Program-made: the position numbers and the translations under genes | IMG/VR virus record: IMGVR_UViG_3300029886_000031 | Reading direction: 5' to 3' (one strand) | Source: a virus | Lineage: Duplodnaviria > Heunggongvirae > Uroviricota > Caudoviricetes | Length of the DNA: 8,161 nt | Part shown: one piece after another, positions 1 through 7,436 of the stretch | Numbering within the stretch: position 1 is the stretch's first letter | Layout: every line of letters starts with the position of its first letter | The notes under the pieces: generated by a model | Seen by the model: the letters and a program-made list of their open reading frames with translations, nothing else | What the model was told of the DNA's origin: nothing | Databases searched by the model: none

Positions 1-1149
1 CTGAAGCTGTAGCGGAATCCCACGCCGTTATCATCCACCACCACATCGCTGTTGGTGTACGGCCACACCACATCCGACGGGCGGTCCTGAACGAACGTCA
101 GCGTCTGACCGTTCCATACCGGCATACAGCGCATCGCAGAGCAGAAATCACTGAGAACGTCCCACGCCTTACGCTGTTGTGCCAGGTACGCATTAAAGGT
201 CATCCGCGGCTCGGTCCCCCCGAAACCATCCGGGACCGTCTGGTCGCAGTACTGCCCGATGGCATACAGCGCCCACTTGTCCACATCCGCCGCCCCCAGA
301 CGTTTTCCCATGCCGTAGCGCGGGTGAGTCAGCATGTCCCACAGACACCAGGCCGGGTTGTTGCTGTATGCCGGTTTCAGACTGCCGTCCCAGATNNNNN
401 NNNNNACTATACGTGCGTTTTTCCGGGTCATAGTTTGACGGCACCTGGATGATGCGACCGCGGATATGGTAGTTCACCGTCATCTGCTGGCCGCCGAACT
501 GCTCCGCATCCACCTGCAGCCCCACAATGGCCGTGTTCGGGTAGCACTGTTTCACATCGATGATTTCGGTGTATGACGACCACAGCGTCTTATTCTGCAG
601 CTGGTCCGTGGTGCTGTCCGCCGTCTCCCTGACCATCCGGATGTTAAAGGGCCGGGGAGGCAGATTATCCAGAATCACCGAGGCCAGGAACTGTGAGGTG
701 GTCTTGCCGTTAATGGTGACGTCCTTTTCTGTCACCCAGTTACCGTTACGCTGTAACTGAATCAGCAGGCGGACGGATGCCGGGTTACGGTCACCCTTTG
801 AGGTGGTCTCCACCAGTGACTGCACCCCGAAGGTAACCCGCAGGCGGTCAATGTTCGCGGACGTAATGGTGCGCGTCACCGGTTTTGCCTTCGTCACTTC
901 CACGCCCAGTCCGGTTTCAGCTCCGGAGGACTCAAAGCCTTCCGGTGGTGTCTGCTCCTGCTCCCCGGCGCGCCAGACCGCCGTCACACCGTGTATCACG
1001 GGATTGCCGTCCGTGTCCGTCAGTGGGGTTTTGTTCACCAGAATACTCTGCAGTCCCTTCACCGGACCTTCTATCGGTCCCTCACCAATCGCATCAATCA
1101 CGCTCATCATCTCACGAGGCGTGTGTGCCTTACCGCCACCTTTTCCCAT
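1..1149 (-). CDS. J: Host specificity protein J (central tail fibre / tail tip), N-terminal part; C-terminus lies beyond the window start. Apparent frame break at the N-run 396-405 is an assembly artefact.
   Basis: Translation from ATG at 1147-1149 (MGKGGGKAHTPREMMSVIDAIGEGPIEGP...GEQEQTPPEGFESSG...TRTITSANIDRLR...FNIRM...DSTTDQLQNKTLWSSYTEIIDVKQCYPNT) closely resembles the lambda J N-terminus as I recall it. Below the N-run the homology continues in a different frame (my manual translation of 1-395 gives IWDGSLKPAYSNNPAWCLWDMLTHPRYGMGKRLGAADVDKWALY...). SD-like GGGGAAGG on the mRNA (plus coords 1154-1161) 4 nt upstream of ATG. Confidence 0.93.
396..405. other. Assembly gap / ambiguous bases (10 N) inside gene J
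   Basis: Run of N seen directly. J homology continues on both sides but in different frames, so the N length does not equal the true missing length. Confidence 0.95.
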
Positions 1150-1253: not shown

Positions 1254-1288
1254 AACCCCGGTATCAGCAGATACCGGGGTTTTCTTTC
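1254..1288. terminator. Hairpin with pyrimidine/T-rich tracts on both sides; candidate bidirectional rho-independent terminator in the I-J spacer
   Basis: Perfect 12-bp inverted repeat AACCCCGGTATC (1254-1265) / GATACCGGGGTT (1270-1281) with 4-nt loop AGCA. Followed on plus strand by TTCTTTC; on minus strand the stem is followed by UCUCUUU. Confidence 0.5.
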
Positions 1289-1354
1289 ATGCCCACCGAT
1301 AATCCTGTTGGTTAAAACCGGTAATGGCATAAAAATTCTGAATATCTTCACATT

Positions 1355-1382
1355 TTCACACACTGACTGTGGCGCTTATAAT
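1355..1382 (+). promoter_or_regulatory. Candidate sigma70 promoter (-35 TTCACA, 16-bp spacer, -10 TATAAT) reading rightwards, opposite to the tail genes
   Basis: TTCACA at 1355-1360 (5/6 match to TTGACA), perfect TATAAT at 1377-1382, AT-rich upstream tract (ATAAAAATTCTGAATATC) that could act as an UP element. Pattern match only. Confidence 0.4.
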
Positions 1383-1388
1383 TTCGCT

Positions 1389-1487
1389 GCGTTAGTGTTT
1401 TTTTGCCCGAGTAACAAAAACAACTCCTTAACATTGATCTTCATTTGTCTGTCCCCGCAGCTCCGCGATCACTGCGGGATTTTTTTA
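1389..1487 (+). ncRNA. Candidate small RNA (about 100 nt) transcribed from the I-J spacer, from the predicted promoter to an intrinsic terminator
   Basis: Predicted start about 7 nt downstream of the -10 (around 1388-1390), 3' end at the terminator U-tract (around 1486). No plausible ORF with an RBS on this strand within the unit. Contains an unstructured A/U-rich stretch with CUCCUUA (1424-1430). Ends are inferred, not measured. Confidence 0.3.
1454..1487 (+). terminator. Rho-independent terminator (plus-strand orientation)
   Basis: GC-rich 7-bp stem CCCGCAG (1454-1460) / CTGCGGG (1472-1478), 11-nt loop, followed by ATTTTTTTAT (1479-1488). On the minus strand the hairpin is preceded, not followed, by the A/T run, so it is unidirectional for plus-strand transcripts. 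Confidence 0.6.
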
Positions 1488-1491
1488 TGTT

Positions 1492-2172
1492 TTATCCCTG
1501 TCGCCCGATAACCACGACCGTTCCGCCCCCGCCTTCATCACGGGTGCTGATGTCCTGGGATATACGGCGGGAGCCAACCAGCATTTCCCCGTAAGGCACC
1601 GGCATCGGGTTCCCCTGGGCAATCATGTTATCCAGCGAGGAAAAGTACGTGTTCTGTCTGCCGTTATCCGTTGCGCGGTAATCCGGTGTTTTTGCCTTCG
1701 GGGCCAGCATCTGGGCCACACCGCCCAGAATCATGCTGGCTCCAAGTGAAAACAGCATCGTGGTGGCAGAAAAACCACCGGCTGCCAGGGCTGAACCCCA
1801 TAACGCCATTGATGCCCCGGCAGTGAAGAAAGAGCCCACGATGGCTGCCGCCCCCAGCACAATCTGCAGTCCACCCTTTCCGGCCCCGGCCAGTCGCGGC
1901 ACAATATGGATGACCGTTCCCTCACCCAGCTGTTCGTGAAGACGGGCGTACACCGCCTCCGGTGCCGTGTCATAACCGGCAATACGTATCTGGTACCAGC
2001 CTTCGTTCATCTGACGGCGAAAGCCCGGCACCTGTAACGACAGCGCCCGGATGGCTTCCGCTGCCGTGTTCACATACAGGCTGAGGCGGCGGCCAAATCG
2101 TTGTAAATCCCCGTGAAGGCAGATGCGTGCCAGTGGCGGTGACGCCAGACAGAATGCGTTCGTCGTTGCCAT
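1492..2172 (-). CDS. I: Tail assembly protein I
   Basis: 226-aa translation (ARICLHGDLQRFGRR...AEAIRAL...WYQIRIAGYD...IHIVPRLAGAGKGG...QIVLGAAAIVGSFFTAGAS...LFSLGASMILGGVAQMLAPKAKTP...NTYFSSLDNMIAQGNPMPVPYGEMLVGSRRISQDISTRDEGGGG) strongly resembles lambda gpI as recalled. Its start lies 103 bp inside the 3' end of K, as in lambda. Confidence 0.93.
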   Translation of the reverse strand: MATTNAFCLASPPLARICLHGDLQRFGRRLSLYVNTAAEAIRALSLQVPGFRRQMNEGWYQIRIAGYDTAPEAVYARLHEQLGEGTVIHIVPRLAGAGKGGLQIVLGAAAIVGSFFTAGASMALWGSALAAGGFSATTMLFSLGASMILGGVAQMLAPKAKTPDYRATDNGRQNTYFSSLDNMIAQGNPMPVPYGEMLVGSRRISQDISTRDEGGGGTVVVIGRQG

Positions 2173-3847: not shown

Positions 3848-6800
3848 TCAGCATTCCTCCGTCACGTCGCATGGACAGCATCACCGCCTGCACCCGCTGG
3901 TCAATCAGCTGCACAAGACTGCCTGCCGCCTCCGCCCCTATCTGTCCGTTAGCCCCGTCATTCTGAATGGCGATGTGGTAGACCGGGGAATACACCAGAC
4001 CGGCACTGCCGTTCATACTGCCCACCGCGCGTACGCCCAGCGAGCCATCCGCCGCCCGGGTCAGGGGCATAATGGCTTCAGGTCCGGCTTCCCCCATCAG
4101 CCCGGCCCCTTTTGCAAACGCAAAGTACGTGGGCGTGTCCACAATGCTGTTGCTGTACGCACTCAGGTTTGCCGAGGTATACACGCCGCCTTTTGCATTG
4201 GCCACCGCACCGCCCAGCCAGTCACCAATGCTGCCAATAAATCCTCCCGCACCGGACATACCGTTTGCCGCCGTCTTAATTCCGTTGACAATCGCAGCAT
4301 TCATAAGAACTTTTGAGATTTCCTGCAGTACGGATGAGGCCCAGTTGCGCCATTCCACTTTGTTTCCGTTCAGCATCTCCGTGATGTTATTCACCATCCC
4401 TGAGATACCCTCCGTCGCAAGCTGTGCTGCCTGTGAGGCGTAATCGGATGCATTGTCCACCCAGTTACTGAGCCCCTCCTGCAAGCCTTTCTGCCAGTCC
4501 GCACGCTGCGCATCCGATTCGGCATAAAAGGCTGCCTGGTCCTTAAGGCGTTCGCTCAGATACTGCGCGTTCTGTGCCCGTGCCTGTCTGTAAAAATCCT
4601 CACTGATATCCCCGGTCTGATACTGAGACTGAAGGTCCGCATCCTTCTGGCGGAAGCTGTCACGGATCTGCTGCAACTCCCGCATGCGTTCCCTGGCTCG
4701 TTCTCCCTGCCCGTATCCCAGCAGTTCGGCTTCATTTGATGCACGCGCAGCCACATTATCATTCTTCAGGGTCTCTTCCCGGGATCGCAACTGTTCCCGG
4801 ATTTTTTGCTGGTCAATCAGGGCCGCGTTACGCAGCAGTTCCTGCTTCTGCATCTCCGTCAGGGTTTTCAGTTCGCCCTGCGCAGTCTGGTACTTCAGCT
4901 TCGCCAGCTCTGTATTCTGACCCGCCAGTGCCAGTTGCTCTTTCTGCTGCTTCAGTAGCCGGGAAAAACTGTCTTCCGCTTTTTCCGTCTCTGATTTTCC
5001 ACCCCGGGATTTAGGTTTGTTCGCCTCGTTATTACGCCAGGCTTCCAGAGCATTACTGATATAACGCTGTCTCGCCTCCTGATACGAATCCCCCACAAAA
5101 CCAAGGTCATCCGCCGCATACCCCAGCCGGGCACGCTCTTTTTCCTCCCCCTTCAGTCGGGACAGGGCCAGCTCACGTTCTGTTTTTGTCAGGGCGCTCT
5201 GCTGTTTATCATCCAGGGTGGCCTGCGGCAGCCGTAACGGTACATTCACCAGTCCCTGACGCTGCTGAAGCAGTTCATTCCCCAGCCCCAGCAGACGGTT
5301 GAATTCCGTATGCTGACCGTTCATAACCAGCATGGACTGGTACACCTTATTCTGCTCTGCCGCCTGCTGACGAATTAACGCCACACGACGGTCTTCCAGC
5401 CCGGCAAGCACATCCTGAATGGACTGCGCTTTTTCCTGCATCTGTGCCAGACGGGACTGCTCAACGGCAAGCTGCTCTGTNNNNNNNNNNNNNNNNNNNN
5501 NNNNNNNNNNNNNNNNNNNNNNNNNNNNNNNNNNNNNCGGTTGTCCAGCCAGGGTTAGCCAGAACATACTGATATCCAGCGATTTTTTCCTGCAGGGATT
5601 TCACCCGGCTGGCCTGTTCATCAATCAGCCGGTTCTGCTCTGCCAGCGCCGCCCGTGTTCGTCCTTCATTATCTGAGGCTTCAGGCAAAGACATTGACGG
5701 CGTTTTATGCGCGATTTCATCTATCGTCAGTGCATACTGGCGCGCTGACTCCCTGGCCTGCTCCTGATTCTGGTACAGCGTATACCATGCTGCTGCCCCC
5801 AGCATCACCAGTCCGGGTACGCCACCAACCAGTCCCAACGCACCAGTCATCAGACGTGAGCCCACCGCCGTTGTACTGTTCAGCTCATTCTGGGCTGCGG
5901 TTCTGGCAGCAATATTTCTGTTCAGGCGTTCCTGTGTGGCCGCCAGACGGGCTTCTGCAGCAATCTGCATCTCCGTCCCGCGGGCTGCCGCCACAGCCTG
6001 CTGTGCACGGTACACGGCTGCCCTTGCCCGCGCCGTGGCAATCTGCGTCCCCCTGAGCTGTGCTTCCGCCAGTGCCACTTCATTACGTGCTGCCGTCACA
6101 AGTCCTGCCGTGGCAGACACCGCTCCGGAGGCCATATTGCCAAAGTACCGGGCAACCCCGACGGCAACCAGCGCCCCCGCGGCTGTTGCCACATTATCAA
6201 TATTACCGGCAACACCGTTCAGCACGCCGGAGAGCGTTTTCGTCGCTCCGCTGGCTTCATTCGCGCCACCCACCCAGGCCATAAAGGCGTTTTCCACCTT
6301 TGTGATCCCGTCAGAGACCGTTTCCGGCATGGCGGCATATTCATCACGCAATACCCCCAGCTGGCTGATTAACGCAGGAACGACTTTATCCGCCGTCAGT
6401 TTGCCGTCGTCCGCCATCGCCTTAAGGTCTTTACGGGCCACGCCCATACCCGCAGCCAGTGCACGTACGATCCGGTCTCCGCTTTCATTGACCGAATTAA
6501 ATTCCTCACCGCGTAACACACCCTGTGCCAGCGCCTGGCTGAACTGGGTGATCACCGAGCCCGCCTCTGCCGTACTGGCACCGGAGATTTTCAGCCCCGT
6601 GGAAATGGCCTCCGTCACCTTCAGCACATCATCAGCACTGTAACCATATTCACGCATTGAGGCTGCCGAGCGGGCAAACAGGGCCGCATTATCTGAAAAT
6701 GCCGTGCCCGTCCGCTGGCTGATATCCATCAGCACTTTCTGTGATGACGAAAATTCATCGGATGACTGCGACGCCTGTTTCAGTCGGGCATTCACGGAAC

Positions 6801-7074: not shown

Positions 7075-7121
7075 TCACCTTTCTCCGGGCGTAAAAAAAC
7101 CGCCTCAGCGGTTCTCATCAT

Positions 7122-7436
7122 TCATGACTGTGCTGCGAAGCTCAGCGCGTCTTCCAGCGCCGCAAACGGATCCACCTCCGGCTTATCCTCATCCTCGCCC
7201 CAGCAGAGCATGGCGTCCTTCAGTGCAACATTCATCCCCTGTGCCCCAAAAACCGCTTTCACGATCTGTGCATTACGGATATCCCCGCGCTCATCACCCA
7301 GCGGGGATACCCTGTCGAACTCCATCCACATCATCGCCTCGCTCACACTCAGGCTGTGCCGCAGTTCGGATAAGGTGCGCCCCAGACGGAGCGCAAGTCG
7401 CATCAGAAAGCGAATTTCCGGGCGGGCTACTTTTTT
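7122..7436 (-). CDS. T: Tail assembly chaperone T portion, expressed as a G-T fusion by programmed -1 ribosomal frameshift (full fusion product spans 7122-7801)
   Basis: The -1 frame is open from the slippery site to the stop TGA at 7122-7124 (…KKVARPEIRFLMRLALRLGRTLSELRHS...EDEDKPEVDPFAALEDALSFAAQS). Arrangement matches the conserved G/GT paradigm immediately upstream of the tape measure gene. Assignment is by synteny and mechanism, not by strong sequence similarity to lambda gpT. Confidence 0.75.
   Translation of the reverse strand, partial: KKVARPEIRFLMRLALRLGRTLSELRHSLSVSEAMMWMEFDRVSPLGDERGDIRNAQIVKAVFGAQGMNVALKDAMLCWGEDEDKPEVDPFAALEDALSFAAQS

Follow-up and report, generated by a model that had tools for sequence, protein, structure and literature searches.

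An anti-Shine-Dalgarno-like island as a candidate seed in a PasB-type small RNA encoded between tail genes I and J of a lambda-like Escherichia coli prophage

The window analysed here, which is the whole stretch of 8,161 nt of IMG/VR record IMGVR_UViG_3300029886_000031, carries between tail genes I and J a small RNA (sRNA) gene that is almost certainly that of PasB, an Hfq-dependent sRNA of EPEC. The sRNA is not a new element: the EHEC relatives were reported in 2014, PasB itself in 2021, and a 2026 preprint covers how PasB is distributed. The reading we propose concerns the region ahead of the terminator, in which a first-pass annotation made from the sequence had noticed an anti-Shine-Dalgarno-like CUCCUUA. 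This region would be the largely unstructured body of PasB, and the conserved island that carries the motif (island 1, nt 21-27 of the RNA) would be a seed pairing in trans with the help of Hfq, a proposal that we hold to be about evenly balanced between true and false.

The window spans tail genes of a lambda-like E. coli prophage, all on the minus strand, namely G, T, H (tape measure), M, L, K and I, followed by the first part of J (Table 1), and prophages in many complete E. coli genomes match it at 99.3-99.4% identity. The I-J spacer measures 342 nt, from the I stop codon (1492-1494) to the J start (1149). The sRNA gene is convergent with gene I, whose stop codon stands 5 nt past the U-tract of the sRNA, and the distance from the J start codon to the sRNA 5' end is 254 nt in the window and 153 nt in EPEC E2348/69. 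The left 176 nt of the spacer (1150-1325) are found in 13 phage records, of the PPompW type only; the right 166 nt (1326-1491) recur in 147 phage records and at 5,544 places in 1,813 of the 5,426 complete E. coli genomes (median 2, maximum 11 copies). As for the tail genes themselves, the apparent stop of J at 193 comes after an N-run (396-405), and the frameshift in K is a 1-nt deletion, either real or an assembly error. Prophage decay, as it might be read from the frameshifts of J, K and H, was rejected as an interpretation, the J and H cases both following N runs.

Table 1. Features of the I-J junction and its flanking genes (window positions)
Feature	Position	Strand	Remark
Tail tip gene J, 5' part	193..1149	-	PHROG central tail fiber J, E=4.8e-144
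GC-rich hairpin, T-runs on both strands	1254..1281		outside the sRNA, within the 176-nt segment 1150-1325
Most conserved block of the spacer, A-tract and TCTGA-N6-TCACA	1330..1356	+	upstream of and overlapping the -35 element
Sigma-70 promoter-like site, TTCACA, 16-nt spacer, TATAAT	1355..1382	+	11/12 consensus match
Candidate 5' leader GCGUUAGUGUUUUUU	1389..1403	+	exists only if transcription starts at ~1389 and trimming follows
Mature PasB-type sRNA, 83 nt, allele A at nt 27	1404..1486	+	82/83 nt identity to E2348/69 PasB
A-rich tract AACAAAAACAA, readable as A-R-N repeats	1413..1423	+	read from sequence; an A-rich tract in all variants
CUCCUUA, sRNA nt 21-27, in conserved island 1 (consensus AAYUCCUUA)	1424..1430	+	single occurrence in the window
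Island 2, UUGAUCUUCAU, consensus UURAUCUUCRU, U-rich before the terminator	1434..1444	+	mean column identity 0.90
Intrinsic terminator: stem CCCGCAG/CUGCGGG (1454-1460/1472-1478), 11-nt loop, A, U7 (1480-1486)	1454..1486	+	
Tail assembly gene I	1492..2172	-	PHROG tail assembly protein, E=6.5e-79

PasB (pathogenicity-associated sRNA B) was described in EPEC E2348/69 by Pearl Mizrahi et al. (2021, Sci Adv; PMC8550237), whose Table S6 places it at NC_011601 1466343..1466261, on the minus strand, as an 83-nt RNA between E2348C_1436 and _1437. That locus proves to be an I-J spacer, with the sRNA on the strand opposite the tail genes. The sole mismatch between the two 83-nt sequences is nt 27 (window 1430), A here and C there, and A1430 is the final base of the flagged CUCCUUA motif. 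Furthermore, the published northern probe, AATCCCGCAGTGATCGCGGAGCT (PMC8550237), is the exact reverse complement of window 1459-1481. Sequence identity, the I-J position on the opposite strand, the terminator with its U7 and the probe site all agree with the same gene, C27 being what sets the E2348/69 allele apart. In EPEC, PasB was verified by northern blot, its level drops 2^6.8-fold without Hfq and it takes part in 37 RIL-seq interactions (PMC8550237). The preprint by Zhu, Shabalina & Storz (2026; 10.64898/2026.05.13.724894) gives 1,158 PasB hits and separates PasB from PasB-2 by a difference at position 27; the window allele, with A27, would fit the PasB-2 described there. A search of Rfam at the locus, with E up to 1, matched no family.

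Three RNAs of EHEC, judged by their sequence, are homologues of the window sRNA. EcOnc22, EcOnc23 and EcOnc24 were reported as three homologous Hfq-CRAC peaks in the Sakai prophages Sp15, Sp14 and Sp11, on the plus strand, with a northern signal of ~85 nt and destabilisation in an hfq deletion (Tree et al. 2014, PMC4104026). The coordinates of that study refer to an older genome version and were shifted to NC_002695.2 by +128 to +140, calibrated on the StxS/AsxR terminators, the shift being put at +128 to +135 when the CLASH reads are taken in as well. The window locus aligns with the Sakai I-J spacers at 74% identity over 166 nt (E=3e-20), and the identity of EcOnc22/23/24 is settled by the RNase E-CLASH reads annotated with these names (Waters et al. 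2017, PMC5286369), because their sequence, GCCTGAAAAATAACTCCATAACGTTAATCTTCATCGTTCTCTCCCGCAGC, matches without a difference the part of the Sakai I-J spacer that is homologous to window 1405-1461. The EHEC RNAs share with the window sRNA the I-J spacer and the strand, and they have kept the upstream block, the two islands and the terminator; they differ in the motif, which is CUCCAUA, in a 5' region that is unlike, and in a mature RNA predicted to be 7 nt shorter. The label 'asxR2' given to EcOnc22 in one CLASH table was set aside as a find/replace artefact (EcOnc2x to asxRx), as 'asxR1' stands for EcOnc21.

The transcript whose absence would have counted against the first-pass annotation is known from its homologues, which were seen on northern blots and in Hfq-CRAC, RNase E-CLASH and RIL-seq data; for these homologues, published experiments establish that the RNA is expressed, what size it has, that it depends on Hfq and that it has a set of partner RNAs. 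A 2021 review gives the function of EcOnc22-24 as unknown. Table S6 of PMC8550237 names EcOnc homologues for PasA and PasD and none for PasB, 'EcOnc' is absent from the main text of the 2026 preprint, and a link between PasB and EcOnc22-24 was not found in the accessible parts of these two sources. As far as those parts extend, the link appears to be an addition to the literature, and joining PasB with EcOnc22-24 makes the family (5,544 places in 1,813 genomes) bigger and more varied than a PasB-only BLAST implies.

The promoter-like site, whose -10 element reads TATAAT, AATAAT or TATCAT among the variants, predicts a start at ~1389, which is 15 nt upstream of the mature 5' end. Indeed, the published mature 5' end of the homologue corresponds to window 1404, not 1389, and the motif therefore occupies nt 21-27 of an 83-nt RNA. 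In Sakai, all the CLASH reads begin at the equivalent G and finish after U7, one of them resembling a 3'-to-5' self-ligation after U7. Either the removal of the first 15 nt or a second start at 1405 could produce the mature end at 1404/1405; the second start would be driven by a TAnnnT element, here TAGTGT (1393-1398), which every variant keeps. The conserved block that precedes and overlaps the -35 element may be an UP element or the site of a regulator.

At the other end of the RNA, the terminator is the sole structure conserved in the RNAalifold consensus, the 5' body having no shared fold, and one variant (L112) shows a compensatory change of the stem to CCCACAG/CUGUGGG. Island 2, the hairpin and U7 look like a standard Hfq-binding module at the sequence level, with UCUUCAUUUGUCUGU, a 7-bp GC-rich stem and a U7, the 3' U-tail of such modules having a length of at least 6. 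The A-rich tract that precedes island 1 is a candidate Hfq distal-face site, on account of the ARN rule given in PMC4104026.

The fold of 1389-1487 is weak overall (z = -1.27). The first-pass annotation had supposed that the whole of 1411-1450 is single-stranded, which the folding bears out for the motif (P(unpaired) 0.67, with 0.70 for its CUCC core) and for 1431-1450 (0.68), but not for 1411-1422: in the same 1389-1487 model these positions make up the 3' side of an A/U hairpin of low stability (-5.1 kcal/mol), with a mean P(unpaired) of 0.23. The 42-nt string that it quoted as lying directly 5' of the terminator is indeed 1411-1452 and stops just before the stem at 1454. We considered and rejected a conserved helix in which the 5' end would pair with the segment 3' of CUCC, its register being lost across the types and RNAalifold keeping the terminator alone. 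The 16S rRNA of E. coli ends in the same 7 nt as the CUCCUUA motif (...ACCUCCUUA-3'). Its pairing with UAAGGAG amounts to -7.5 kcal/mol, in keeping with a seed complementary to a GGAG-type Shine-Dalgarno (SD) sequence.

The conservation of the sRNA was followed in two sets of loci, one anchored on protein I (88 loci, 29-30 distinct versions) and the other on the upstream block (63 distinct family members, reduced to 19 representatives with <93% mutual identity). Among the 19 representatives, the motif columns of island 1 average 0.86 identity (0.74, 1.0, 0.89, 0.84, 0.63, 1.0 and 0.95 from 1424 to 1430), and the remaining columns of the body average 0.70, or 0.54 when gap columns are counted. 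It is this conservation that places the motif beyond chance, and not the count of the bare 7-mer: CTCCTTA is found once in the window against 0.42 expected, and at least once in 67 of 200 shuffles, which is not significant. Exact CUCCUUA is present in 8 of the 19 representatives, CUCC in 12 and xUCC in 15; counted by copies, the motif reads CUCCUUA in ~35%, UUCCUUA in 33%, CUCCCUG in 10%, CUCCAUA in 9% and CUCCUUC in 7%, UUAUCUA also being among the variants and UCCUUA being present in about two thirds of the copies. In the homologous spacers, where a lack of conservation would have spoken against the first-pass annotation, the motif is kept as a consensus and not as an invariant string. Some phages possess a second, tandem sRNA-like gene with another terminator, which still carries CUCCUUA or ACCUCCUUA, (AC)CUCCUUA being kept.

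Island 2 holds the best-conserved 7-mers of the sRNA body. This body contains two conserved islands and not one, the 5' island being the anti-SD-like one; this, too, appears to be an addition to the literature. The seeds of sRNAs are usually conserved islands in a variable, unstructured body. Both islands, with P(unpaired) of 0.6-0.7 and no conserved 5' structure around them, have the properties of conserved and accessible single-stranded seeds, although island 2 may be either an element of the Hfq module or a second seed. Conservation pattern and accessibility, like the identity and the genomic context of the RNA, are direct observations.

The RIL-seq partners of PasB in the activating condition are bfpB, bfpI, ftsZ, galE, ler, perB, rplX and an intergenic RNA beside pasA, and the same study found no common target motif for PasB (PMC8550237). 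Six partner windows from the activating-condition list were compared with the unstructured 49 nt of PasB by local duplexes, with shuffled controls. The best predicted duplex of the six, at -22 kcal/mol (equalled by 2 of 100 shuffles), is formed by ler at +316..+337 of its 372-nt CDS and consists of 9 bp with nt 22-30 (UCCUUCACA with UGUGAAGGA) and 7 bp with nt 33-39. In perB, GGAAGGAGG at +345 is predicted to pair with CUCCUUC; the predicted duplexes of ler, perB, galE and bfpB involve the motif, and that of bfpI (+352) involves island 2 alone. The summed energy over the six partners is better than 97 of 100 shuffles (p ~0.03), in a small set from which no single partner but ler stands out. 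Over the six partners, 22 kcal/mol are lost when island 1 is masked and 18 kcal/mol when island 2 is masked.

Five of the six windows lie inside a CDS (ler +316, perB +345, bfpI +352, galE and bfpB), and ftsZ, the sole window across a translation start, pairs no better than shuffles; among the six activating-condition RIL-seq windows, sites of the CyaR kind, overlapping a ribosome-binding site (RBS) or start, were not found. The occlusion of RBSs, which the first-pass annotation had regarded as the typical action of such seeds, is somewhat contradicted by these results. The predicted duplexes of this small set point instead to SD-like purine runs within coding regions, and not to true RBSs. 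The 57 translation starts of phage ASU11, searched as possible targets, gave a best match no better than shuffled seeds (p=0.11). The Sakai CLASH hybrids are few and of low count (yjbJ coding region, ECs5349 and ECs4701). We rejected yjbJ as a conserved target; it pairs with the Sakai allele only (-22.7 vs -10 to -13 kcal/mol), at +133 in its CDS.

The A27 allele of the window is predicted to pair less well than the C27 allele, with -15.5 to -16.9 vs -22 kcal/mol for ler, and perB would be weaker as well. The polymorphism at position 27 lies inside the predicted 9-bp ler helix, an observation on modelled duplexes that appears to add to the literature.

The mechanism we propose combines these elements. 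PasB is an independent gene, a moron, of the I-J spacer that is read in the direction opposite to the tail operon, and its RNA is built of the A-rich tract, island 1, a short variable linker, island 2 and the hairpin with U7, in this order. Hfq-assisted base pairing in trans would be the likeliest mode of action. From the duplexes and the conservation we infer that nt 21-27 serve as a seed: island 1 would settle on purine-rich GAAGGAG-like sequences, often jointly with island 2. The outcome of the pairing would possibly be mRNA decay and not RBS occlusion, because most of the partner sites lie within a CDS.

The role given here to island 1 has to be weighed against the possibility that island 2 is the sole seed, CUCCUUA and the A-rich tract being kept for Hfq binding, processing or stability. 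The 2026 preprint (10.64898/2026.05.13.724894) indeed proposes a PasB seed just upstream of the terminator, which is island 2 here; this island is the best-conserved part of the body (0.90), it is present in all the EcOnc22-24 CLASH reads, and it accounts by itself for the predicted bfpI duplex. But the six partners lose more predicted pairing energy when island 1 is masked than when island 2 is, the strongest duplex, that of ler, requires nt 22-30, and a U-rich stretch before the terminator is a standard element of Hfq modules, whose conservation need not mean target pairing. We consider island 2 as the only seed to be doubtful. That the likeness to the 16S 3' end is a coincidence, the sRNA being real and the motif just a run rich in pyrimidines that has no particular role, is improbable in our judgement: the 7-mer is expected 0.42 times per window and is exact in just 8 of the 19 representatives, but the motif is conserved above the surrounding body, is kept in the paralogous tandem gene and is complementary to sites in several of the published partners.

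Two further explanations dispense with a trans-acting island 1 altogether. The first-pass annotation had envisaged that the sRNA acts in cis on the I-J transcript, and PasB might indeed work mainly by its complementarity to the I-J mRNA, with cleavage of the duplex or interference tuning J and the motif having no special role. The geometry allows it, the gene being wholly inside the I-J spacer on the opposite strand, 5 nt from the I stop codon, and the junction bears terminator-like sense-strand hairpins here and in distant phages. Such complementarity holds, however, for any sequence and leaves the two conserved islands unexplained; the sRNA reaches neither the coding end of I nor the RBS of J (254 nt off here, 153 nt in E2348/69), and it overlaps no stop, start, RBS or processing site of these genes; moreover, lysogens express PasB, and RIL-seq gives it many partners in trans. 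A mainly cis action is therefore unlikely. Could it be, on the other hand, the minus strand that matters? There the motif reads UAAGGAG, a perfect SD, and island 2 reads AUGAAGAU, with an in-frame ATG at 1444 opening the 22-codon MKINVKELFLLLGQKNTNAAKL in the window; a 32-codon ORF (MKISVKELFF...) has been annotated automatically in phage PhiR12_1 (PV340549), and on inspection of the sequences the indels between the window and Sakai preserve the frame over the first 18-20 codons. That a small protein is encoded is nevertheless very unlikely, because the start codon is ACG or ACA in ~40% of the copies (island 2 then ending in CGU or UGU, not CAU), because the length and C-terminus of the ORF vary by type (22, 32, 41 and 31 codons, one type being frame-shifted), and because it is on the sRNA strand that the strand-specific signals of Hfq-CRAC and RIL-seq fall. 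Nor does the 77-codon minus-strand ORF of the spacer (1130-1363) have a PHROG match.

Among other sRNAs, CyaR (RF00112) offers the nearest likeness to a PasB with an anti-SD-like seed. This Hfq-dependent sRNA of the E. coli core has a C/U-rich stretch with the same sequence as the 16S 3' end, CUCCUUA included; its seed lies in a hairpin loop and it targets true RBSs. Both are Hfq-binding sRNAs with an anti-SD-like stretch and an intrinsic terminator, but there is no homology between them (no Rfam match for the window sRNA, and only the 7-mer in common), and the partner sites of the window sRNA are mostly within CDSs. HnrS (EcOnc10-12), AgvB and AsxR are, like the window sRNA, short multicopy Hfq-binding morons of EHEC lambda-like prophages with a conserved 3' module and a variable 5' part; unlike it, they are located between Rz and terminase or downstream of PR', and they have no sequence in common with it. 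AgvB and AsxR mimic mRNA sites and sponge host sRNAs, whereas the motif of the window mimics the rRNA side. An identity with AgvB/AsxR, suggested by an A/C-rich tract that resembles a GcvB target site, was rejected, the location being I-J with no similarity beyond 8-mers; neither their common ~42-nt 3' region nor their position downstream of PR' is found here. An identity with HnrS, or a common hha target, was likewise rejected: the locus is another one, and the hha RBS (GGGUAGAAG) is not complementary, offering only the 4 bp of CUUC/GAAG.

Could PasB and EcOnc22-24 be one large family of I-J-junction sRNAs, with AAYUCCUUA as primary seed and with natural variation in and beside this island, C/A27 included, retuning the targets? 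We put this forward tentatively, as an idea that stands well short of an even chance. As parts of that same tentative idea, C27 would match ler, the LEE master regulator, and A27, common in LEE-negative strains, would not; PasB would be the member of EPEC and of many non-pathogenic lineages and EcOnc22-24 those of EHEC, the family being present in about one third of the complete E. coli genomes, a single one having as many as 11 copies. If confirmed, the PasB/EcOnc22-24 link, the two islands and the place of position 27 in the ler helix would supply a specific hypothesis on the seed and target of a prophage sRNA that is abundant and as yet uncharacterised.

The I-J junction itself deserves a last remark. 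In distant lambda-like phages (Enterobacter, Rahnella and Pantoea) the I-J spacer is just 42-54 nt long and holds a sense-strand hairpin, and a Pseudocitrobacter phage has a lipoprotein-like ORF at this place. Because distant phages hold there either a short hairpin spacer or such an ORF, the junction appears to be a site of moron insertion, and PasB appears to be one such insertion, found here in E. coli-type prophages.

The most conserved part of the entire spacer between the tail genes I and J is a block lying upstream of the PasB-type sRNA gene (AAAAATTCTGAATATCTTCACATTTT), which consists of an A-tract together with TCTGA-N6-TCACA. It resembles a CRP site, with agreement at nine of the ten core positions, and the centre of this CRP-like site would fall at -44.5 for a transcription start at 1389 or at -60.5 for a start at 1405. 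As judged from its sequence, the block could be an UP element or the site of a regulator. Downstream, a TAnnnT element located 7 nt before the mature 5' end is retained in all variants, as TAGTGT in the window and as TAATTT, TACTTT, TACAGT or TACCGT among the other types; it marks either an additional promoter or, in a leader that is processed, the conserved 5' end. In one of the compared I-J loci (L153), the sRNA promoter is interrupted between its -35 and -10 hexamers by the terminal part of an IS3-family element.

In some phages, the I-J spacer carries two tandem sRNA-like genes. The two upstream blocks are 179 nt apart in the case of L107, L162 and L182, and 471 nt apart in the case of L148. 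The body and the terminator differ in the upstream copy of these tandem loci, yet the CUCCUUA motif is retained (ACCUCCUUA in L148); in L107 and L122, the -10 region of the upstream copy is replaced. A second CUCC is found in the terminator loop and is kept in many variants, and an alternative pairing of the terminator 3' arm with the CCGCG of this loop is possible. The labels 'asxR1' and 'asxR2', given to EcOnc21 and EcOnc22 in one CLASH table (supplementary file 4, PMC5286369), were rejected as a functional assignment and are apparently the product of a find/replace of EcOnc2 by asxR.

The 176-nt segment enclosing the GC-rich hairpin of the window is present only in 13 PPompW-type phage records, and a different hairpin occupies the equivalent position, just upstream of J, in Sakai and E2348/69. 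In distant lambda-like phages of Enterobacter, Rahnella and Pantoea (L012, L013, L015, L016 and L019), the spacer is reduced to 42-54 nt, made up of a sense-strand hairpin and a T-run directly 5' of the J ATG, and the sRNA gene is absent from it. The spacer of the Pseudocitrobacter locus L011 is 582 nt long and contains a lipoprotein-like ORF. The junction between I and J thus resembles a site of repeated insertion.

Coordinates of the features in the window
Feature	Position (strand)	Description
Upstream block	1330-1356 (+)	
TAnnnT element	1393-1398 (+)	
Second CUCC	1461-1466 (+)	CUCCGC
GC-rich hairpin	1254-1281	bidirectional terminator-like, T-runs flanking on both strands; inside 1150-1325
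Deletion	1110	27 nt, in J; vs E. coli 4/1-1
Deletion	2477	1 nt, in K; vs E. coli 4/1-1
Deletion	3629	15 nt, in M; vs E. coli 4/1-1
N run	396-405	10 bases
N run	5481-5537	57 bases
isrK-like match	7093-7160 (-)	

Apart from its N runs and three deletions, the window is identical to E. coli 4/1-1. The J stop at 193 and the split of H are only apparent, being assembly or masking artefacts, and the low-GC dip of the composition profile (5250-5700) is caused by an N run. K is split after the 1-nt deletion, and this deletion could be either genuine or an error of the assembly. Finally, between the tail genes T and H, Rfam returns a sense-strand match to isrK that is weak (E=0.0087), with 27 bits where the gathering score is 50; this region comprises two hairpins, with a terminator-like stem and a U-run at its end, and is probably just a terminator-like structure within the late operon.
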